From: an uncultured Candidatus Saccharibacteria bacterium
GTDB lineage: Bacteria > Patescibacteriota > Doudnabacteria > UBA920
Direction of reading: 5' to 3'
NCBI GenBank assembly: GCA_964474825.1
Contig: CAYYWQ010000001.1
Span: forward strand, 549,609 to 613,608
Length of the DNA stretch: 64,000 nt
In this document: positions 3,022-63,862 of the stretch, piece after piece
How the letters are laid out: the number at the start of each line of letters is the position of its first letter
Position numbering within the stretch: the stretch's first letter is position 1
Program-made: the position numbers and the translations under genes
The notes under the pieces: model-generated
The model's input: only the letters and a program-made list of their open reading frames with translations
What the model was told of the DNA's origin: nothing
Database searches by the model: none

Positions 3022-4101
3022 CTACTCTTTAAGCACCATCATATAATCACAATGTATAACTTCTTTTTCCAAAGCGCGCCCTTTTCCCAGGGCTTGTTTT
3101 ATGGACATGGCGCCTTGAATGTCTTTTTGACTGTAATTGCTTTTACCGTAAGCCACGGCCAGGCCGGTTTTACCAATAACTTCTACAATTTCGCCTTTGT
3201 CAAACATGCCGCGGGAAGAAATAATACCTGGAAACAAAAGGCTTTTATTACTCCTCAAAGCTTTAGCCGCGCCGTCGTCTATTACAAGCTGGCCAAAACC
3301 TTTAGAAGCCAATAACCAGCGTTTTTGCTCGCTCATGTCCTTAGGAACTGCAGCCGCGAACCTTGTCCCCGGGTGATCTTTTGTCAGGGCTTTCAATATA
3401 ATATCTTTTTCTCGTCCGTCTACAATTAAAGTTTCCACTCCGCCGTGAACCGCGTGTTTGGCCGCGCGGATCTTGCTTAGCATGCCTCCCCGTCCGCCGC
3501 TGGACTTGGTACCGCTGCACATTCTTTCCAGCTCAAAATCAACATTTTTTACTTCCTTTATAAGTTCAGCATTTTTGTCCACACTAGGGTCTGCGGTAAA
3601 AAACCCTTTCTGGCTGGTTAAAATTAAAAGCTTGTCTGCCCCTGTTGCAACGGCTACCATTGCGGCCAACTGGTCGTTGTCGCCTGTTACTAAATCCGCC
3701 TTAGAAATTACGTCGTTGCCGTTTATAACCGGCAAAACTCCGGCCTTAAGCATGCTATTTAAAACCGCAACTAAATTAGTATAACGCTCACGGTCCGTAA
3801 GCTCACTGCGCAAAATTAACAACTGCCCCACATCCGCCCCAAATTCGCCCGCGTATTTTCCATAAAACTGCATTAAATACGGCTGGCCTACCGCGGCCCA
3901 AATTTGCTTGTCTTCTACAGAGTCCAGCTTAGGCAATTTTTCCCGGCCAAAGCCAACCGCGCCGCTGCTAACCAAAATTATTTCATGGCCGGCTTTACGC
4001 AATTCAAAAATTTCCGCGATTAAATTTTTAATCACGGAAGGCTGGATGACATTAGTGTCGTTACTCAAAACATTTGTGGCAACTTTTACAACAATTCTCA
4101 T
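3022..4101 (-). CDS. proB: Glutamate 5-kinase with C-terminal PUA domain
   Basis: MRIVVKVATNVLS… amino-acid kinase fold with a PUA-like C-terminus, first gene of the proBCA operon. Confidence 0.9.
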   Translation of the reverse strand: MRIVVKVATNVLSNDTNVIQPSVIKNLIAEIFELRKAGHEIILVSSGAVGFGREKLPKLDSVEDKQIWAAVGQPYLMQFYGKYAGEFGADVGQLLILRSELTDRERYTNLVAVLNSMLKAGVLPVINGNDVISKADLVTGDNDQLAAMVAVATGADKLLILTSQKGFFTADPSVDKNAELIKEVKNVDFELERMCSGTKSSGGRGGMLSKIRAAKHAVHGGVETLIVDGREKDIILKALTKDHPGTRFAAAVPKDMSEQKRWLLASKGFGQLVIDDGAAKALRSNKSLLFPGIISSRGMFDKGEIVEVIGKTGLAVAYGKSNYSQKDIQGAMSIKQALGKGRALEKEVIHCDYMMVLKE

Positions 4102-6232: not shown

Positions 6233-6307
6233 TGGCTGGGGCGGTAGGATTCGAACCTACGAATGGGGGCTTCAAAGGCCCCTGCCTTACCGCTTGGCGA
6301 CGCCCCA
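6233..6307 (-). tRNA. tRNA-Gln (anticodon UUG)
   Basis: The reverse complement folds as a cloverleaf: acceptor TGGGGCG/CGCCCCA, anticodon stem GGGGC/GCCCC with loop CTTTGAA (anticodon TTG), T-arm GTAGG-TTCGAAT-CCTAC, and an encoded CCA. Confidence 0.85.
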
Positions 6308-8100: not shown

Positions 8101-8649
8101 TTAATTAAATTGGTACATTCTTTCTGAAACTTGCTTTAGTCTTTTGCGGGCGCGGTATTGCAGGACTCTTACGGCTAAGGTGTTTTTATTTAAGACTTTG
8201 GCTACTTCGCCTACGGAAAGTTGTTTAAAGAACCTAAGCTCAAGCACTTTCCTGTAACGCGCGGAAAGATATTTAAAACAGGAGCGGGCGGTTTCCAGGT
8301 CTGACTCTGTTTGCATGGTCTTTTGCAAAGACTTGTTGTCAGGCAAGTCAAACCCTTCGTCTATGCTTATTACGTCCGGCCGGCTGTATTTTTTGCGGAG
8401 CTGGTCGTTAATGGCGTTGTTGGCAATAGTGTAAAGCCAGCCGCTAAAATTTATTTCCCCGGGGCGTAAATACGGCAGGGCTTTATAGCTCTTAATAAAA
8501 ACTTCCTGCAACACGTCTTCCGCGTCCTGGTAATTTTGGATTTTTTTTCTAATATGGAAAAAAATCCTTTTGGCGAAAGAGTTGTACAGTTCTTCAAAGG
8601 CAGCCAAGTCGCCGTTTTTTGCTAAAAGCGCAAGTTGGTTAGTTTCCAT
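8101..8649 (-). CDS. ECF-type RNA polymerase sigma factor (sigma-70 regions 2 and 4)
   Basis: 182 aa with a region-2 segment (…EDVLQEVFIKSYKALPY…, SGWLYTIANNAI) and a region-4 HTH (LSVGEVAKVLNKNTLAVRVLQYRARKRL). Confidence 0.85.
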   Translation of the reverse strand: METNQLALLAKNGDLAAFEELYNSFAKRIFFHIRKKIQNYQDAEDVLQEVFIKSYKALPYLRPGEINFSGWLYTIANNAINDQLRKKYSRPDVISIDEGFDLPDNKSLQKTMQTESDLETARSCFKYLSARYRKVLELRFFKQLSVGEVAKVLNKNTLAVRVLQYRARKRLKQVSERMYQFN

Positions 8650-8685
8650 AATTGTTATGTTAATTATATTTATTTCTAATATTGC

Positions 8686-9096
8686 TTAAGCGGCCATTTG
8701 CCGCAGTTTGGACGGCTTTAATTTTTCCCTGACTTCCAAAACCACTTGTTCAAAATTCCAATCCTCATGAAGATAAAAATCCCTTAAGGGCTCTTCTTTG
8801 GAGTCTTTGGGGTCAGGAAGCCCGGAACCAAGCCAGCTGCTTAAAAACATAACCGGCACGGTTTGGCCCCATTTGTTTTCCCGGAGCCTCTTAATTAAAG
8901 TTAAGCCGTCGGAGTTGGGCATTACCAGGTCCACGACCAATAAATCCGGATGCCACCGCAGGGCTAAATTTAAGGCGTTCGCACCATCCGCCGCGGTTAA
9001 GACGTTTAAGCCTTCTCTCCTAAAAATTTCCGCCCAGGCTTTGAGCAAAGATTTTTCGTCTTCTACCACTAAAACAGTTGGTGTATGTTGCTGCAT
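8686..9096 (-). CDS. Stand-alone response-regulator receiver (CheY-like)
   Basis: VLVVEDE…DLLVVDLVMP…LTLIKRL is a REC domain only. Confidence 0.8.
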   Translation of the reverse strand: MQQHTPTVLVVEDEKSLLKAWAEIFRREGLNVLTAADGANALNLALRWHPDLLVVDLVMPNSDGLTLIKRLRENKWGQTVPVMFLSSWLGSGLPDPKDSKEEPLRDFYLHEDWNFEQVVLEVREKLKPSKLRQMAA

Positions 9097-9290
9097 AGTT
9101 TATTCCTTCTCAGGACTTACCCACCGCCGCCTCTTGAACTGGCGAAGCCAGTCCTTCAAGGCGGCTCTGGCCAATTGCTTCGTTATTTTGTTCCGGTTTT
9201 ACTCGCCGTAGCCTGGCTACGCCTCGTAAAATCCTCACAAAATGCCTCGCACTTGGCGGAAGTAGTGTAAGCCCTGTTTATTTATAATGA

Positions 9291-9424
9291 AAAAAAACCG
9301 AACAAAAAACTTTTGTCCGGTTTCGCCATTGGCCTCTCCCGCCATAATTTTAAAAATTATGCGCGGGCCAGCTGCGATTGTAAGGCGACCAAATAATAAA
9401 TCGCAGATTGTAGGCCTACTAAAT
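9291..9424 (-). repeat. Copy 1 of a ~130-nt conserved intergenic element (terminator hairpin plus structured segment)
   Basis: ~85% identical to 13164..13297. Contains hairpin ctgcgatt[19 nt]aatcgcag and the palindrome gtaggcctac. On the minus strand it ends in a hairpin plus U-tract. Confidence 0.6.
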
Positions 9425-9435
9425 TTAGTTAAATT

Positions 9436-11685
9436 TTAAAGTAACTTTACTACTTCCAATGTGCTGCTTTGAGGAAAAGGAACCTCTTCTTTTTTAGGAT
9501 ACTTTATTTCCATCCACTCCGGGAAATCTTCGGCGCTCATAGGTTTGGCTATAAGGAAACCTTGCGCGGCGTCGCAGCCTAAACTTTGCAAAAAAACCAT
9601 TTGCTGCCCTTCTTCCACCCCTTCGGCCGTAACCTGTAAATTCAAAGTTTGGGCCATGGCAATAATAGTTTTGGTAATGCTGGTGTCAGGCGCGCTGGTT
9701 ATGCAGTGTCTGACAAAAGATTTGTCTATTTTTAAACCGTGAATGGGAAAACGTTTTAAATAATTGAGCGAAGAATAGCCGGTGCCAAAGTCGTCTATTG
9801 TAATTTGCACGCCTAAATTTTTTAATGCTTTTAAGTTAACCCGGGTTAGCTCCAAATCCCCCATTGCCAAACTTTCCGTAATTTCCATTTCCAGGCAATT
9901 GGCTTCCAGGCCGGTTTCCGCTAAAGTGTTTGCTACTTCGGCCACAAATTCCGGTTCGGAAAATTGCTGCGCGGAAACATTTACCGCTATACGGAATTTA
10001 GGCAGTCCCATGTCTTGCCAAACTTTAGCTTGTATACAGGCCTGCCTTAAAACAATTTTGTCCAGCTGGGCAATTAGCCCTGTTTCTTCGGCTAAAGAAA
10101 TAAATTCACTGGGAAGCAAAAGCCCCTTTTCCGGATGCTGCCAACGCGCCAGAGCTTCTAGAGCAATAATCTTATTTCTTTTTAAGCTAATAATAGGCTG
10201 GTAGTGGACTGTAATTTGGTTTAAGAATAAGGCTTCGCGGAATTCGTTCTCAAGGGTAAACCTTTCAGCCTGATGCAAGCCATGGAGGGAAGAGTCATAC
10301 AGGCTTAAGCGGTTGCGGCCGTTCTCCTTGGCCCTGTACAAAGCAACGTCCGCGTTCCTTTTAAGGCCGGACAAATCTAGTCCGTCGTTGGGGTATATGG
10401 CAATGCCAATGCTCACTGTAGGGTGTATGGTATGCTCTTCCACTTTTACCGGTAAACTTACGGCCCGGAGTATTTTTTCCGCGGCCACAACCACGTCTTT
10501 ACTGGAACGGATGTCGTTAATTAAAATTAAAAATTCATCTCCGCCAAACCTGCAGGCCACGTCTTCACCCCTAATGCTTGTTACCAACCTGCTGGCAATA
10601 ACTTTAAGCAGGGAATCTCCCGCGACATGACCGAGACGGTCGTTAACGTTTTTAAAACGGTCCATGTCCAAGAACATTATGGCAATTTGGCGATTGTTGC
10701 GCTTGGCTTGTTCCAATGCCTGGTCAAAACGAATGTGGAATTCCTTCCTGTTGGGTAAACCCGTTAGGGAATCATGCAAAGCTTGGTGGGTTATAGTCCT
10801 TTCCGCTTCCTTGCGTTCAGTAATGTCACGGATATTGGCAATAATTCCGTTTACGCTCGGGTCGTCCAACTTATTTACCGCGCTTGCTTCCAGCCAGCGC
10901 CAGGAACCATTACTGTGCCTATAACGAGCCTCTACGGTCATTGCTTTGTTGGGCTGCACAGCGGTTTGAAGCATGTGATTCTGGATTTTTTCTACGTCAT
11001 CAGAATGCATAAAATCCACCAAATTACGTCCTAACAAATCACCTACCGCATGCCCAGCCATACGGGTTATTGAACCGCTAATGTCCGTAATACTTCCGTT
11101 CGCGTCCAGCAGGGCGATAACATCGTAACTGTTTTCTATCATGGACCTAAAACGCAGTTTCTGGTTTTCCGATTCCAGCCTGGCTTCCTGTTCCCCCATT
11201 CTTAACTGATTAATTGTAATAGCCTGGGCCGCGGCATTCCCCAAAGCTATGGACAGGCCCTGCTCCTCTTCGGAAAAATTATGGGCATCTTTATAACAAA
11301 TAACTAAGTTCCCATAAATACTATTTTTATAACAAATCGGGATAATAACATAACTTTTCATGTAAGGGCTAACGTCATACCCTTCCTCGTAGTCTTCCTT
11401 TTTTACAACTTCCACAAAAAGTGGCTCCTGTTTTTTTTGGACCAAATAATTCCCTCCGCGTTCCCGGGGAAAATTGGGGTCATAAGGAACAGTAGGGCTT
11501 TTATAAACTAACTCAAAGCCTTGGCCAAAGGGTTTAACCCACCAGGCAAAGCCAAAGTCGGCTTCTAAAATTGCCAAACCGGTGTCCATAAACTTTTGGA
11601 TAATAGTTTCTTTCTCAGCGACATTGAAAGATTCCAAAATTGTATGGTTAAGCAAAGTTATTTTTTTTGAAATTGATTCACTCAT
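9436..11685 (-). CDS. GAF-PAS-GGDEF-EAL protein (diguanylate cyclase/phosphodiesterase)
   Basis: 749 aa. RFGGDEF(LIL) GGDEF motif, EALARW EAL motif, and PAS/GAF-like N-terminal regions. Confidence 0.85.
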   Translation of the reverse strand: MSESISKKITLLNHTILESFNVAEKETIIQKFMDTGLAILEADFGFAWWVKPFGQGFELVYKSPTVPYDPNFPRERGGNYLVQKKQEPLFVEVVKKEDYEEGYDVSPYMKSYVIIPICYKNSIYGNLVICYKDAHNFSEEEQGLSIALGNAAAQAITINQLRMGEQEARLESENQKLRFRSMIENSYDVIALLDANGSITDISGSITRMAGHAVGDLLGRNLVDFMHSDDVEKIQNHMLQTAVQPNKAMTVEARYRHSNGSWRWLEASAVNKLDDPSVNGIIANIRDITERKEAERTITHQALHDSLTGLPNRKEFHIRFDQALEQAKRNNRQIAIMFLDMDRFKNVNDRLGHVAGDSLLKVIASRLVTSIRGEDVACRFGGDEFLILINDIRSSKDVVVAAEKILRAVSLPVKVEEHTIHPTVSIGIAIYPNDGLDLSGLKRNADVALYRAKENGRNRLSLYDSSLHGLHQAERFTLENEFREALFLNQITVHYQPIISLKRNKIIALEALARWQHPEKGLLLPSEFISLAEETGLIAQLDKIVLRQACIQAKVWQDMGLPKFRIAVNVSAQQFSEPEFVAEVANTLAETGLEANCLEMEITESLAMGDLELTRVNLKALKNLGVQITIDDFGTGYSSLNYLKRFPIHGLKIDKSFVRHCITSAPDTSITKTIIAMAQTLNLQVTAEGVEEGQQMVFLQSLGCDAAQGFLIAKPMSAEDFPEWMEIKYPKKEEVPFPQSSTLEVVKLL

Positions 11686-11759
11686 AATATATTAAAGTTT
11701 GGTTGTGGAGAGAACAACCCGGCGGATCCTTACGGAACTGCCAGATTGTCCTCTCCATG

Positions 11760-12587
11760 CTATCGGTCGGCCATAAGGCGCAGAATTGAATACTGCTGAT
11801 GAAAGTACCAGAATCTTCCCAGAACTTCCAACGACAGTTTCCCTCCAGCGCCTTCTTGAGCGGGCTCCAGAAGCTCGGGTAAATCGTAAGGGGTTGTGTC
11901 TCCCCATTCCGGCTTACTGAACTTGTGTCCTTCCCACTCCACCTCAGCTGAGTTGTCGGCTTTGGTTGGGTGGACTAGGTAGACCCGCCGCTGAGGGTAG
12001 TTCTCGGGAACCGGCTCTAAAGCAAAGGAGCCCAATATAGCCATTAGGCGCGCCTTAATGATTTCGTCGCAAATTTGCGCAAGCGACGAGCCCACAATAG
12101 CCAGGGCCGACATAATATCCACCGCGCCTGAGCTCCATGCCCGAATAACTTCCTCTTGAATAACGTTCCAGTCGAGTCGGTTTCGGTCTGAGTATCTTAC
12201 AGCGTTCTGGCATGCGACTTTACTATTGTCGCGCACCACAACACTAAAATACTCTTTTCCCACAGCCTTGGCCGCAGATTTCTCGCGGCCTAAGCCCCAG
12301 CCCCAGAATTCCCAATTCTGTCCAATTATATCTGACGGGCGCAGGGCCTGGGTCCGGACGGAACGAGCCTCACGGCGAATAATTCGACACACGGATCTTC
12401 GCCATACGGCATTCTGTTCCCGATAAGAAGCCAAGGTTACCAACCCTAGCCTCACCAGGTCCCGCGGTGCAAGCGGGAAAGGATTACTTGGAACTGGCGT
12501 CAATTTCTCGTCCCACTTCTTTTGAAGCGCGGGATCAATACCAGCCCCTATTTGAGCCTCGAGATGATGGCCGAACCGGGTCATCAT
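11760..12587 (-). CDS. Hypothetical protein, GC-rich compositional outlier
   Basis: 275 aa ORF with a strong GGAGGAGG SD. The segment ~11.69-12.6 kb is visibly GC-richer than its flanks. No recognisable motif. Confidence 0.5.
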   Translation of the reverse strand: MMTRFGHHLEAQIGAGIDPALQKKWDEKLTPVPSNPFPLAPRDLVRLGLVTLASYREQNAVWRRSVCRIIRREARSVRTQALRPSDIIGQNWEFWGWGLGREKSAAKAVGKEYFSVVVRDNSKVACQNAVRYSDRNRLDWNVIQEEVIRAWSSGAVDIMSALAIVGSSLAQICDEIIKARLMAILGSFALEPVPENYPQRRVYLVHPTKADNSAEVEWEGHKFSKPEWGDTTPYDLPELLEPAQEGAGGKLSLEVLGRFWYFHQQYSILRLMADR

Positions 12588-12680
12588 GCTCCTCCTCCCT
12601 TAATTATAGCCTATAAACATAAGGATATTCAAAGGAAAGAGGCAATTTCTTAAAGAACAAAGTAGAAAATATTTTTTCCC

Positions 12681-13004
12681 TTAAACTTGAGGCAGGTTTC
12701 GCAAAAACCTGCTAAAGTGGATAATTACCACCCCTCCTGCCATAATTAGCGCTAAAGCATAAGGGTTATAACCAACGTTCATGGAAGCAACCGCCGCATA
12801 ACCACCAAGGGCCCCTACAATACCAATTAAGATGTCCCACAGCTTTCTGTACCGTGCCTTAGAAACAAACAACCCGGTAATTACTCCCAAAAAAATTGAA
12901 ATTAAAGTATCCATAATTTTTCCTTTCAAACTAATTATGGAGCTGTCCATAACTATTTTTAAAAATGCGTAATGGTCCCGCAATCCCTCCGTTACCTCCC
13001 GCAA
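12681..13004 (-). CDS. Small membrane protein, possibly GlsB/YeaQ/YmgE family
   Basis: Gly-rich TM helices (ISIFLGVITGLFVS…IGIVGALGGYAAV). The true start may be the internal Met MDTLIS. Confidence 0.4.
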   Translation of the reverse strand: MREVTEGLRDHYAFLKIVMDSSIISLKGKIMDTLISIFLGVITGLFVSKARYRKLWDILIGIVGALGGYAAVASMNVGYNPYALALIMAGGVVIIHFSRFLRNLPQV

Positions 13005-13163
13005 TTGCGGGACCGCTTCGCAATTTACATGTTGTCTTCCTGACCGCTCATGCCACCTTTATTGCCCTCTCCCTGGCCTTGATTCATGCCAGAGTCGCTG
13101 TCTGCAAAATTATATGTTTTCATAATTCTCACCGCCTTTCATTGTAGGGCCCTAAATAATTAA

Positions 13164-13297
13164 CAAAAAACCGGCCCAAAATAATTTGTCCGGTTTCGCC
13201 ACTGGCCTCGCCCGTCATAATTTTTAAAAATTATTGACGAACCTTGCTGTGATTATAAGGCGACCAAATAATAAATCACAGATTGCAGGCCTACTAA
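13164..13297 (-). repeat. Copy 2 of the ~130-nt conserved intergenic element
   Basis: Aligns with 9291..9424. The hairpin arm ctgTgatt…aatcAcag carries a compensatory change relative to copy 1 (ctgCgatt…aatcGcag). Confidence 0.6.
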
Positions 13298-13433
13298 ATA
13301 TATGAAATTGTACTCACCTTAAAATTTTATACAATCATTACTGTCTTGTCAACAGAAAAACTTTCCTTCATTTAAGCGAAGAGAGGTAATTTATCCACAC
13401 CAATAAAATTTTTGCTTCGTTCGGGGCACACTG

Positions 13434-15806
13434 TTATTTTAAGCGCGCATCGCTTGCCGTCATAACTGAAAGCTTAGCCATAGCTAAATCATAACTGTTT
13501 GCTTTAACCAGGAAACTTGCCTGTCCGCCATTGCTTAAAAAAGTATTCCAGTCCGGAACCGGTATAAGGCCTTCCGGGGTTAAGAAGTAAACGGCTTTTC
13601 CTGAAAGCAGCCAGCTGCCTCGCGGGTGAGCTCCGTTTGCGGTTACCACAACTTTCCCTGAAAGAGCCAAACCTGAATTGGAAACAACAGTAAGGTTCGC
13701 AAACTTAAAACCAAGCCCTAAAAATGCGGCCGCGTTAGCAAATGGTGTTTTGGTGTTTTTATATACCAAAGCTATGGTTCCGTTTTCATTTATTAATTGT
13801 CCGTTAACATAGCTTCCTGTTGTTGCCACAGGGGTAGGTGTGGGCGTGGGAACAGCTGTTGGTGTGGGAGTTGGCGTAGGGCTCGCACTAGAGGAGTTTA
13901 CTGTTACGTTCAAAGTGGCGCAGGAGCTTCCACCGGTTTGGCAAATACTCACACTGGCGTTACCTACTGTTATACCGGTTAAACTAAGCTGAGACCCGCT
14001 TAAATTTAAAGTTAGCGCGCTGGGATTTGTAATACCCGAAATATAATAGGTGCCGCTGCCTCCGCTAATAGAAATAGCCTGAGTTTGGTTTAAACCCAAG
14101 GCTGGACTGTTGTTGCTAAAAGTAATAGTACCGGTCCCGGCCGCTGCGCTGGCAACAGTAATAGACATAACGCCACAAACTGAAGAATTATTATTTTGGC
14201 AAACCGTAACACTGGAAGTCCCGGCGTTCAGCCCTGTCACGTAAAGGGAATTAGACTGCAAAGAAACCGCGGCCGCGGAAGGGTTGGAATTATTTGAAAT
14301 ATAATAACTGCCACTGCCGCCAGTTATGGAAACTGTCTGGTTTTGATTTAAGGCAACATTCACGTTACTTGGGCTAAAGGTAAGTCCCCCACCAGCGCCG
14401 TTAACAGTAACATAAAGCGTACCGCAAACCGTGCTGGAAGTCTGGCAAACCGTAATAGTGCTGCTGCCTACATTTTGTCCGACCAAATAAAGAGAACTGC
14501 CGCTTAAGCTCAAGCTGACAATGCTAGCGCTGGTGTTATTTGAAATAGTGTAGGTGTTAACTCCATTGGTGGAATAAATAGCTATGCTCTGGCTTTGACC
14601 AACGGTCATAACCGGATTTTGCAAACTAAAACTAATGCCGCCGGTAGTGGTGGTGCCGCTTGAGCCGACCTGCACGAACAAATAAACACAGCCCGAAGTT
14701 GAACCAGCCGGGCAAATGGTCAAAGTGCTGGATCCGGCCGCAACAGCGTAAACTGTTACCGTCTGGCCGGTCTGCCCGCTAACGTAAGAACTAACACTTG
14801 CCGAAACAACCGCTGAGTTACTATTGTTTGTAATACTTAAAGCCGCGGTGCTGTTGTTAATTGTTGCGGTACCTGTATTGCCCGCAGTTAAAACCAAACT
14901 GGAAGGGCTAATGGTTAATCCGTTCTGGCCATTGCTGCCCACCGTTACAGTTACAGTACCGCAATAGCTGGAGCCGGTTTGGCAAATTGACAGGGTGGCA
15001 TTCCCTGGAGTACCTCCCGAAAAATATAAAGTGGAACCCGAAATGCTGGGACTAGACACAATATTGGAATTGGAATTACTGGAAATATAATAAGCCGAAG
15101 AATTGCTATTGCTCGGACTGTAAATGGTAATATTGGAACTTTGTCCTGCAATAACAACGGGGTTGGCGTTACTAAAATTCAAGGTTGTGGAACTCCCGCC
15201 GTTGACCGTTACAAGAATATTTCCGCACTGGGTAGCAGACACTGTTGAGCATACCGTTAAGGTTGTGCTGCCCGTAGACTGGCCGGTAATAATAACAGAT
15301 GCCCCGCTAACAAAAACATTGGCAACCGAAGCATTACTGTTGCTTGTTACGGAAACGTTGCCGCCACTGGAAGGAGAAGCTACCACTGTCGCGCTATTGG
15401 GGCTTGTTATGGACACGCTTGTCTGGCTCAAAGTTAAAGTTCCGCTTACACACCCGCCGGTGCAGCTGCCCGGAGGAATTTGGACTGTGGGCGACTGTAG
15501 TCCTCCTATTATTACGTAAAGCAATAGCGGATTGCTGCTGCCGTCAAAACTAACGGTTTGCGTGGAAGTAAAATTGCCGTTTGTATCGGTATTACCTAAA
15601 CTATTTGAACTCCCTGTAAAAGAGGATGAGCTCTGCCTTTGGTATAAATAAACCGGGGTATTAGCGTTAGCATTGTTAATATTCAAGGTTACCGAATTGC
15701 CGCTGGATGTCGCGTACAAACTGGGAGTACCGGCCAACGCAGTCCCGGCCAGGCTGGCAAAAATTAAAACCAAACACAACCCAAACAGCAAAAGTTTTTG
15801 TTTCAT
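13434..15806 (-). CDS. Large secreted S/T/N-rich protein with repeated Ig-like (Big-type) modules, PT linker and C-terminal domain
   Basis: Signal peptide MKQKLLLFGLCLVLIFASLAGTALAG. About 8 repeats of ~85 aa, each with two Cys (…LT[IV]CQTGSS.CGT..VTV), then PTPTPTPTAVPTPTPTP and a ~130-aa C-terminal domain. Confidence 0.75.
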   Translation of the reverse strand: MKQKLLLFGLCLVLIFASLAGTALAGTPSLYATSSGNSVTLNINNANANTPVYLYQRQSSSSFTGSSNSLGNTDTNGNFTSTQTVSFDGSSNPLLLYVIIGGLQSPTVQIPPGSCTGGCVSGTLTLSQTSVSITSPNSATVVASPSSGGNVSVTSNSNASVANVFVSGASVIITGQSTGSTTLTVCSTVSATQCGNILVTVNGGSSTTLNFSNANPVVIAGQSSNITIYSPSNSNSSAYYISSNSNSNIVSSPSISGSTLYFSGGTPGNATLSICQTGSSYCGTVTVTVGSNGQNGLTISPSSLVLTAGNTGTATINNSTAALSITNNSNSAVVSASVSSYVSGQTGQTVTVYAVAAGSSTLTICPAGSTSGCVYLFVQVGSSGTTTTGGISFSLQNPVMTVGQSQSIAIYSTNGVNTYTISNNTSASIVSLSLSGSSLYLVGQNVGSSTITVCQTSSTVCGTLYVTVNGAGGGLTFSPSNVNVALNQNQTVSITGGSGSYYISNNSNPSAAAVSLQSNSLYVTGLNAGTSSVTVCQNNNSSVCGVMSITVASAAAGTGTITFSNNSPALGLNQTQAISISGGSGTYYISGITNPSALTLNLSGSQLSLTGITVGNASVSICQTGGSSCATLNVTVNSSSASPTPTPTPTAVPTPTPTPVATTGSYVNGQLINENGTIALVYKNTKTPFANAAAFLGLGFKFANLTVVSNSGLALSGKVVVTANGAHPRGSWLLSGKAVYFLTPEGLIPVPDWNTFLSNGGQASFLVKANSYDLAMAKLSVMTASDARLK

Positions 15807-63631: not shown

Positions 63632-63862
63632 TTAATTAAAAATATGATTACTGTCTAATAGCTGTTTCTTTAAAACCTGTAAGTCAGAACTTTTTTCGCA
63701 GAAAGGCTCAATAAAGGAAAGTAAGTCCTGCCTGGATTTAATTTTAGCGCAAACCGGCTCAAATTCTCTCATTAAAAAAATAGCATCCGGTACAACCATT
63801 CTTTTTTCTTTAACAAGATTGCTTAAAAATAGGCAAAAAATACTTATATAATTCTCTTCCAT
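63632..63862 (-). CDS. Hypothetical small protein
   Basis: 76 aa ORF only. Confidence 0.3.
   Translation of the reverse strand: MEENYISIFCLFLSNLVKEKRMVVPDAIFLMREFEPVCAKIKSRQDLLSFIEPFCEKSSDLQVLKKQLLDSNHIFN

Follow-up and report, generated by a model that had tools for sequence, protein, structure and literature searches.

The window analysed here is a 64,000-nt stretch of a Patescibacteria contig (CAYYWQ010000001.1), and its minus strand carries two similar intergenic elements, copy 1 (9290..9426) and copy 2 (13165..13301), each of which we read as a putative aptamer followed by an intrinsic terminator. The genes around them are all encoded on the same strand. Copy 2 lies 3' of the stop codon of a gene for a 790-aa surface protein (13434-15806, from the list of open reading frames, ORFs) and forms the 5' leader of a small-ORF operon, whose first gene is a 32-aa ORF (13025..13123) taken from the same list and also called on a Logan contig. 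This is followed by genes for a small membrane protein (12681..13004), a 275-aa protein with a methyltransferase-like fold (11760..12587), and a GAF-PAS-GGDEF-EAL protein (9436..11685; Pfam EAL 1.7e-73, GGDEF 1.9e-49) whose translation shows RxxD, GGDEF, EAL, and DDFGTG motifs. Copy 1 is situated between the stop codon of this GGDEF-EAL gene (9436) and the gene for a receiver-only response regulator (8686..9096; Pfam Response_reg 4.4e-18), downstream of which is an extracytoplasmic function (ECF)-type sigma factor (8101..8649) with Pfam Sigma70_r2 and Sigma70_r4 domains and an NCBIfam sigma70-ECF match of 90 bits, above the cut-off. We infer that the genes flanking the elements are co-transcribed.

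The original prediction, which was made from the sequence of the window, described segments 9291-9424 and 13164-13297 as a repeat of about 85% identity with a compensatory base-pair change in its main hairpin. Global alignment of the two segments yielded 82.4% identity (112/136 columns) and a score of 85.5, as compared to -8.4 +/- 6.3 (maximum 13.5) for 300 random pairs of window segments, and BLASTN yielded 82.9% over 158 nt (E 1.7e-38) with the similarity extending over 9284-9438 and 13156-13312. The repeat is thus real and far above what random pairs produce, at an identity of 82-83%. No third copy was found in the 64-kb window by BLAST or by a covariance model run with filters off; one marginal covariance-model match, at 63777-63857, was rejected as AU-rich noise with none of the motifs. 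The main hairpin is present as described (ctgCgatt/aatcGcag in copy 1 and ctgTgatt/aatcAcag in copy 2, a C:G to U:A double change), a hairpin and U-tract close both copies on the minus strand per terminator scan and folding, and each copy does lie past the stop of a large minus-strand gene. The adjacent gtaggcctac, which had been taken for a conserved palindrome, is not one in both copies, as copy 2 reads gcaggcctac; the GGCC(U) within it is conserved, and its partner is a downstream (A)GGCC with which it forms a helix, here called P1a. A second hairpin, P3, is also compensated between the copies, one C-G pair having become U-A and two others U-G.

Read in the 5' to 3' direction, copy 1 opens with the P1 5' strand AAAUUUAGU (9418..9426), of which only the top GU is conserved, its partner being the AC at 9316-9315. 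The P1a 5' strand GGCCU (9412..9416; MFE [minimum free energy] folding and RNAalifold) pairs with AGGCC at 9331..9335 (MFE folding, pair counts, and RNAalifold), and the P2 5' strand CUGCGAUU (9399..9406; covariation over 24 sequences) pairs with AAUCGCAG (9372..9379; folding, pair counts, and RNAalifold). The loop of P2 contains the 5' strand of a pseudoknot, GGUCGCC (9384..9390), which is equivalent to the conserved CGGuCGCC of Rfam family RF03169, the aptamer of the cyclic di-GMP (c-di-GMP)-II-GAG riboswitch (clan CL00127). The pseudoknot 3' strand GGCGAAACC (9319..9327) is equivalent to the conserved UGGCGAGACCG of that family and overlaps the 5' half of the terminator. The optional hairpin P3, CCCGCGCAUAAUUUUUAAAAUUAUGGCGGG (9338..9367), is inserted between P2 and the P1a 3' strand, and the excised 34-nt junction segment containing it folds as a hairpin of -15.6 kcal/mol. 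The terminator itself, GAAACCGGACAAAA / UUUUGUUCGGUUUU followed by a U-tract (9290..9324), was identified by the terminator scan as 14 pairs and then a T run, and its hairpin has a predicted energy of -14.5 kcal/mol. The fold z-score of copy 1 is -5.1.

Copy 2 (fold z-score -2.9) is built in the same way. Its P1a 5' strand GGCCU (13287..13291) is partnered by AGGCC at 13204-13208 per folding and pair counts, and its P2 5' strand CUGUGAUU (13274..13281) by AAUCACAG at 13247-13254; the pseudoknot strands GGUCGCC (13259..13265) and GGCGAAACC (13192..13200) were both placed by alignment to RF03169 and by pair counts. P3 of copy 2, GUUCGUCAAUAAUUUUUAAAAAUUAUGACGGGC (13210..13242), is the compensated counterpart of that in copy 1, and the excised 36-nt junction segment containing it folds at -10.6 kcal/mol. 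The terminator GAAACCGG..CCGGUUUUUU (13165..13197) has a hairpin of -12.3 kcal/mol followed by U6. Immediately upstream of copy 2 is a sigma-70-like promoter, TTGACA-17-TAAAAT (13324..13352), which has 11/12 consensus matches and, by consensus match only, is the best candidate within 8600-13700.

To compare these copies with relatives, we assembled 24 distinct elements, the window's two included, and ten orthologous Patescibacteria contig sets. About 20 orthologues of the window's GGDEF-EAL protein, 51-66% identical to it, were found, and one of them, the closest named relative, is labelled Candidatus Doudnabacteria. Among the matches listed, the genome pattern scan retained elements from Anaerolineae and Nitriliruptoria as well as two from Patescibacteria that are built like the window's, L046 (Patescibacteria AMAZON01) and L098 (Candidatus Saccharibacteria). 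Most of the matches listed from the genome scan came from GC-rich coding sequence and were set aside as noise, one example being a 59-nt stretch conserved in sphingomonads. In the metagenome scan, contig L121 was the one real match, very close to the window, and L120 was discarded as a coding false positive; the scan of viral sequences returned coding noise and no real element.

Both element sites are occupied in ten related contig sets, and the order of genes around them is conserved: one element (a), a small ORF at the position of the window's 32-aa ORF, a protein of about 80 aa, a protein of about 270 aa, the GGDEF-EAL gene, a second element (b), the response regulator, usually the ECF sigma factor, and then small DUF6496, DUF5670, YggT, and Transgly_assoc proteins. 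The protein of about 80 aa, which is the positional counterpart of the window's small membrane protein, carries a Pfam Transgly_assoc domain in some relatives. At all loci the downstream genes are co-oriented with the element. As the two-site arrangement is common to ten contig sets, it is therefore old. In L140 (about 3790-3830), the upstream site and the small ORFs are missing, and a terminator-like AAACCGGACAAAAAUGUCCGGUUUUU that follows an ABC-transporter gene is possibly a remnant of element a.

The elements share a common core, which consists of an AU-rich P1, an unpaired A, P1a (AGCC or GGCC with GGCU or GGCC), a 6-nt internal loop, P2, a 3-nt junction, and the P1a 3' strand, and continues with ARUGGCGAAACC, GG, and the P1 3' strand. 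P2 is 8 bp long with a 19-nt loop containing GGUCGCC. Thirteen of the 24 elements have the core only, and the other 11, both window copies included, carry P3 insertions of 14, 18, 23, 24, 34, 35, 36, 41, 43, 56, and 107 nt. In all 11 carriers the insertion is found at the same site, past the P2 3' strand and ahead of that of P1a, and all 11 fold as hairpins despite differing sequences. The upper extreme is in L141 (7377-7600), where the 107-nt P3 forms a long branched helix of -23.8 kcal/mol. Both MAFFT and Infernal misaligned the P3-bearing elements, the latter by placing the true P2 3' strand in a loop and pairing P2 with half of P3; for this reason, P3 was explicitly excised and the elements realigned before pairs were counted. 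Two P2 pairs of L098 are still misaligned, so that the percentage of paired cells comes out slightly lower.

Across the 24 elements, 91.1% of the cells of the shared structure are paired, versus 84.1% in shuffles and 21-38% in slid controls, and 13 of 24 pairs show changes on both sides. The covariation score was reached by none of 500 shuffles, although shuffle counts overstate significance because related sequences are non-independent samples, and firmer evidence comes from the slid controls and from how many distinct pair types occur. P2 has 7 of its 8 pairs compensatory and 98.4% of cells paired. Two of the four P1a pairs are changed on both sides; its outer pair is G-C in some elements and A-U in others, and L131b is compensatory with AGUC/GACU. 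RNAalifold recovered P1a and P2 independently. The top pairs of P1 are kept in nearly all elements (G-C in 24/24 and U-A in 22/24), while an extended P1 of five pairs was dropped as unsupported by the pair counts in a fixed register. The pseudoknot (GGU-CGCC with GGCG-AA-ACC) has 97.6% paired cells, and its 3' strand varies only in L140b, where GGUCGCG stands with UCGCGAAACC, a compensatory C:G to G:C change that keeps the pseudoknot and breaks an alternative local hairpin proposed by RNAalifold. Taken together with the homology described below, this covariation supports the suggestion in the original prediction that the repeat is a regulatory RNA motif under structural selection.

When Rfam was searched in E-value mode, both copies matched RF03169 over its full length (1-86/86): copy 1 at 9306-9428(-) with 24.6 bits and E 0.17, and copy 2 at 13179-13303(-) with 25.8 bits and E 0.08. 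Both alignments pass through the conserved GGUCGCCU and GCCAGUGGCGAAACCG and treat a block of about 35 nt in the window copies as an insertion; three further overlapping, lower-scoring matches of the same clan were suppressed by clan competition. At gathering thresholds, the sole Rfam match in the whole window is a tRNA gene (6236-6307, minus strand). The gathering score of RF03169, 40 bits, is reached by two positional orthologues of the window elements, L143b (44.8 bits) and L139a (40.6 bits). A covariance model that we built from 12 related Patescibacteria elements, R1, scores the window copies at 67.6 bits (copy 1) and 65.8 bits (copy 2), and recovers 12 Rfam-accepted RF03169 members at E 4e-10 to 0.08, among which the accepted Anaerolineae members score 30-46 bits (E 4e-10 to 2e-5). 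As R1 finds RF03169 members and two orthologues pass the RF03169 threshold, the relationship is reciprocal. The Anaerolineae and Nitriliruptoria elements among the matches listed from the genome pattern scan are themselves accepted as RF03169, at 42.8-63.7 bits.

The window copies have the helix order of RF03169, with P1, an unpaired A, P1a, an internal loop, and P2 following one another as in the family, per the full-length model alignment, covariation, and RNAalifold. They also have its pseudoknot, in that the P2-loop GGUCGCC of both copies can pair with the 3' GGCGARACC, part of a conserved GCCARUGGCGARACCG, and in both groups this 3' strand doubles as the 5' half of a terminator. In other respects they depart from the family. 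The top pairs of P1 are GU/AC in the Patescibacteria elements and GG/CC in RF03169, and the internal loop, which in RF03169 has the GA...GA of a kink-turn signature, is mostly AA...NA here (in the window copies, 5' AA and 3' GA). As this conserved GA/GA is replaced, the tertiary fold may differ from that of RF03169, and we class the elements as a variant and not as plain members of the family. The optional hairpin between P2 and P1a gives the Patescibacteria elements a three-way junction, whereas 14 accepted RF03169 members taken for comparison have an extra hairpin inside the P2 loop, after GGUCGCC, a sample that is biased because the pattern scan demanded a spacer of 30-60 nt. The host lineage, Patescibacteria, also differs, as do the genes served: large secreted surface proteins are encoded after RF03169 members elsewhere as well as after the Patescibacteria element L046, while the elements of the Doudnabacteria-like group precede small envelope/stress-type membrane proteins, a response regulator, a sigma factor, and the GGDEF-EAL gene. 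The bulged nucleotide of the pseudoknot 3' strand, GGCGA[N]ACC, is a G in four Actinomycetota elements (L032, L037, L050, and L103; GGCGAGACC) and an A (GGCGAAACC) in all 10 Anaerolineae elements compared (L024, L040, L042, L044, L074, L085, L089, L092, L106, and L109) and in all 24 Patescibacteria elements.

All elements but L098, 23 in total, have an intrinsic terminator after the aptamer, the 5' half of which is AAACCGGAC, (G)AAACCGGACAA and is made up of the pseudoknot's ACC and the P1 3' strand. The 3' segment GAAACCGGACAA is common to the aptamer and the terminator 5' half, and the folded aptamer and the terminator are therefore predicted to exclude each other. The MFE fold of the full-length window copies contains P1a, P2, P3, and the terminator, without P1, and enforcing P1 costs 2.3-3.3 kcal/mol; given these values and the terminator energies, the default state appears to be termination. 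An aptamer with an expression platform upstream of co-oriented genes is the arrangement of a riboswitch, and it is present at both window sites. With the ligand absent, the terminator would form and transcription would stop, and with the ligand bound, the pseudoknot and P1 would hold the shared strand such that RNA polymerase could read through. Such ON logic is the most likely reading of the terminator overlap, and the ligand is probably c-di-GMP, because of the assignment to RF03169 and the constant association with the GGDEF-EAL gene. Copy 2, with a predicted promoter of its own, would gate the 32-aa ORF, the small membrane protein, the methyltransferase-fold protein, and the GGDEF-EAL protein. 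Copy 1 would act both as a conditional terminator of the GGDEF-EAL transcript and as a further gate, controlling the response regulator and the ECF sigma factor; that it may also be the terminator of the GGDEF-EAL gene follows from its start within 10 nt (<=10 nt) of that gene's stop codon.

On the sequence evidence, then, we consider it likely that both elements are divergent c-di-GMP-II-GAG-type transcriptional ON riboswitches, with c-di-GMP as the most likely ligand. Canonical c-di-GMP-II riboswitches (RF01786; Lee et al. 2010, with the structure by Smith et al. 2011, as summarised in PMC9495366) are in the same Rfam clan, have a pseudoknotted aptamer, and are associated with c-di-GMP-related genes, and class II sensors of c-di-GMP tend towards ON control (PMC9495366). 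They differ from the window elements in their kink-turn, which is not evident in the latter. A more distant analogy is offered by c-di-GMP-I (GEMM-I) and tandem c-di-GMP riboswitches, such as Bc3-5 of Bacillus thuringiensis (PMC4759541), which also sense c-di-GMP by RNA and place more than one sensor in a transcription unit. Their fold is unrelated, and the window's sensors are not adjacent but about 3.9 kb apart, one at the start of and the other inside an apparent operon.

Several observations weigh against this assignment. Both window copies fall under the RF03169 gathering score (24.6 and 25.8 versus 40 bits), which only 2 of the 20 Patescibacteria elements tested reach. At the kink-turn site, 18 of 24 elements read AA on the 5' strand and 4 read GA; for the 3' strand the count of GA is only 4 of 24. 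The GA...GA signature is visible in most of the 14 accepted members compared. As a whole helix P1 is 72% paired, the pairs below its top two are weakly supported, and the U-A pair 52-85 is a C-A mismatch in four sequences. The pseudoknot is almost invariant, and its covariation support therefore comes from a single compensatory case. A scan of 8600-13700 with a sigma-70-like consensus made no promoter evident directly upstream of copy 1. Finally, we take RF03169 to be a variant class whose binding-site nucleotides are unlike those of canonical c-di-GMP-II, and we know of no published ligand test for it.

Some of these same observations lend themselves to a different account, in which the architecture and ON logic are as proposed and the ligand is pGpG, another cyclic dinucleotide, or an unrelated metabolite. 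Such a specificity variant would agree with the replaced kink-turn GA/GA, with the RF03169 scores below the family threshold, and with the split of the GGCGA[N]ACC nucleotide by lineage, G in Actinomycetota and A in Anaerolineae and Patescibacteria; the GAG class was reportedly flagged by Weinberg et al. (2017, in PNAS) as a possible altered-specificity variant. The main text of Weinberg 2017 in NAR does not discuss the c-di-GMP-II-GAG motif. We nevertheless regard another ligand as unlikely: a GGDEF-EAL gene is bordered by the elements in ten related contig sets, accepted RF03169 members have exactly the same pseudoknot and other conserved core nucleotides, and no metabolic enzymes or transporters that would point to another ligand are found downstream. 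A trans-acting role seems improbable to a greater degree. Each time a terminator fires, a discrete product of about 130 nt comprising aptamer and terminator is expected, and such transcripts might act as small RNAs (sRNAs) instead of or besides control in cis, as the terminated riboswitch transcripts SreA and SreB do in Listeria. The original prediction had offered a 3' untranslated region (3'UTR)-derived sRNA, and for copy 1 this is half right, the element starting no more than 10 nt past the GGDEF-EAL stop codon, but its anatomy is that of a conditional gate for the downstream genes. The 3'UTR reading does not apply to copy 2, which has its own near-consensus promoter and is a 5' leader. Furthermore, the conserved nucleotides are of the ligand-binding aptamer type and not an exposed seed region, and the element always has co-oriented genes directly downstream and is followed by a ribosome-binding site, as in L125b. 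No complementarity to a target turned up, though no search aimed at it was made.

That the pair might be a recent segmental duplication or a small mobile repeat without a function of its own, its hairpin changes due to drift, we find very hard to sustain. The window copies are indeed closer to each other than to any orthologue, with 93.5% identity in the aptamer core (within-genome values range over 75-93.5%, versus about 77-79% between genomes), and in both the window and L125 the two copies have P3 sequences homologous to one another. However, this within-genome likeness fits occasional gene conversion between two old paralogues, and the two copies are at the same two syntenic sites in ten contig sets, with 13 pairs showing compensatory change. 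The original prediction had held a duplication to be the better explanation should no further covarying copies exist; many do. Nor do the copies behave as the small non-autonomous repeat it had also proposed, as there are only two of them in 64 kb and no terminal repeats or target duplications of the kind expected of a miniature inverted-repeat transposable element or a repetitive extragenic palindromic (REP)-like element flank them. The last possibility considered, that a small plus-strand protein gene, such as a 50-aa ORF at 9287-9439, accounts for the conservation, is scarcely credible. This ORF spans copy 1, and a similar peptide, RRPNNKSQI.GL, can be read in L121, but no such ORF crosses copy 2 and the substitutions are pairwise compensatory, not concentrated at third codon positions. 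Most of the P3 insertions have lengths that are not divisible by three, an indel pattern that contradicts a coding reading, which was rejected.

In our view the pair consists of riboswitch-type leaders that are a structural variant with kinship to an already described Rfam family and do not amount to a novel type of system; what sets them apart is the host lineage, the position of P3 at a new site, and the lost kink-turn signature. If c-di-GMP-II-GAG-type riboswitches are what these elements are, at least one Patescibacteria lineage would have a c-di-GMP-II-type RNA sensor around a GGDEF-EAL gene, a response regulator, an ECF sigma factor, and small envelope/stress proteins. The elements would thereby offer a testable entry point into second-messenger signalling in the Patescibacteria (Candidate Phyla Radiation), in which gene regulation is almost unstudied; a literature search in one searchable library found no paper dealing jointly with this radiation, c-di-GMP, and riboswitches. 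Most of the sub-family escapes the current Rfam model, which makes the elements useful for improving it, and both the new site of the optional helix and the loss of the kink-turn signature bear on which parts of the fold ligand binding needs. A bolder possibility, which we think doubtful, is that the Patescibacteria subtype forms a distinct specificity class for a ligand such as pGpG, the product of the adjacent EAL domain. In a weaker version, the serial copies would form a graded two-threshold circuit in which the GGDEF-EAL protein first amplifies its own expression and the response regulator/ECF sigma programme is turned on only afterwards. Either version, if true, would amount to an RNA-based second-messenger circuit in ultra-small symbiotic bacteria.

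The 275-aa protein encoded between the small membrane protein and the GGDEF-EAL gene is kept at that position in all relatives. It has no Pfam or NCBIfam match, and it is confidently modelled as a class I S-adenosylmethionine (SAM)-dependent methyltransferase-like fold (AlphaFold pLDDT 85.8, pTM 0.86), with SAM-dependent methyltransferases at the top of a Foldseek search of the PDB (best match 1wzn, E 1e-7, TM about 0.5). On a related Patescibacteria contig, L142, an adenosylcobalamin (AdoCbl) riboswitch (RF01482, 70.4 bits) was found at 606-732, upstream of a gene for a 746-aa protein.

The window also contains, at 9160-9262, between the terminator of copy 1 and the start codon of the response regulator, an imperfect hairpin of about 95 nt, which has no Rfam match and one arm of which is purine-rich with three GAGG motifs about 11 nt apart. 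Elements at L131 12403-12490 and L125 7657-7753 share 76-78% identity with it and have the opposite orientation relative to the genes, and the L125 counterpart is at a different locus, upstream of another ECF sigma gene. These hairpin elements have fold z-scores of -3.7 to -7 and could be REP-like palindromic elements or sRNAs.

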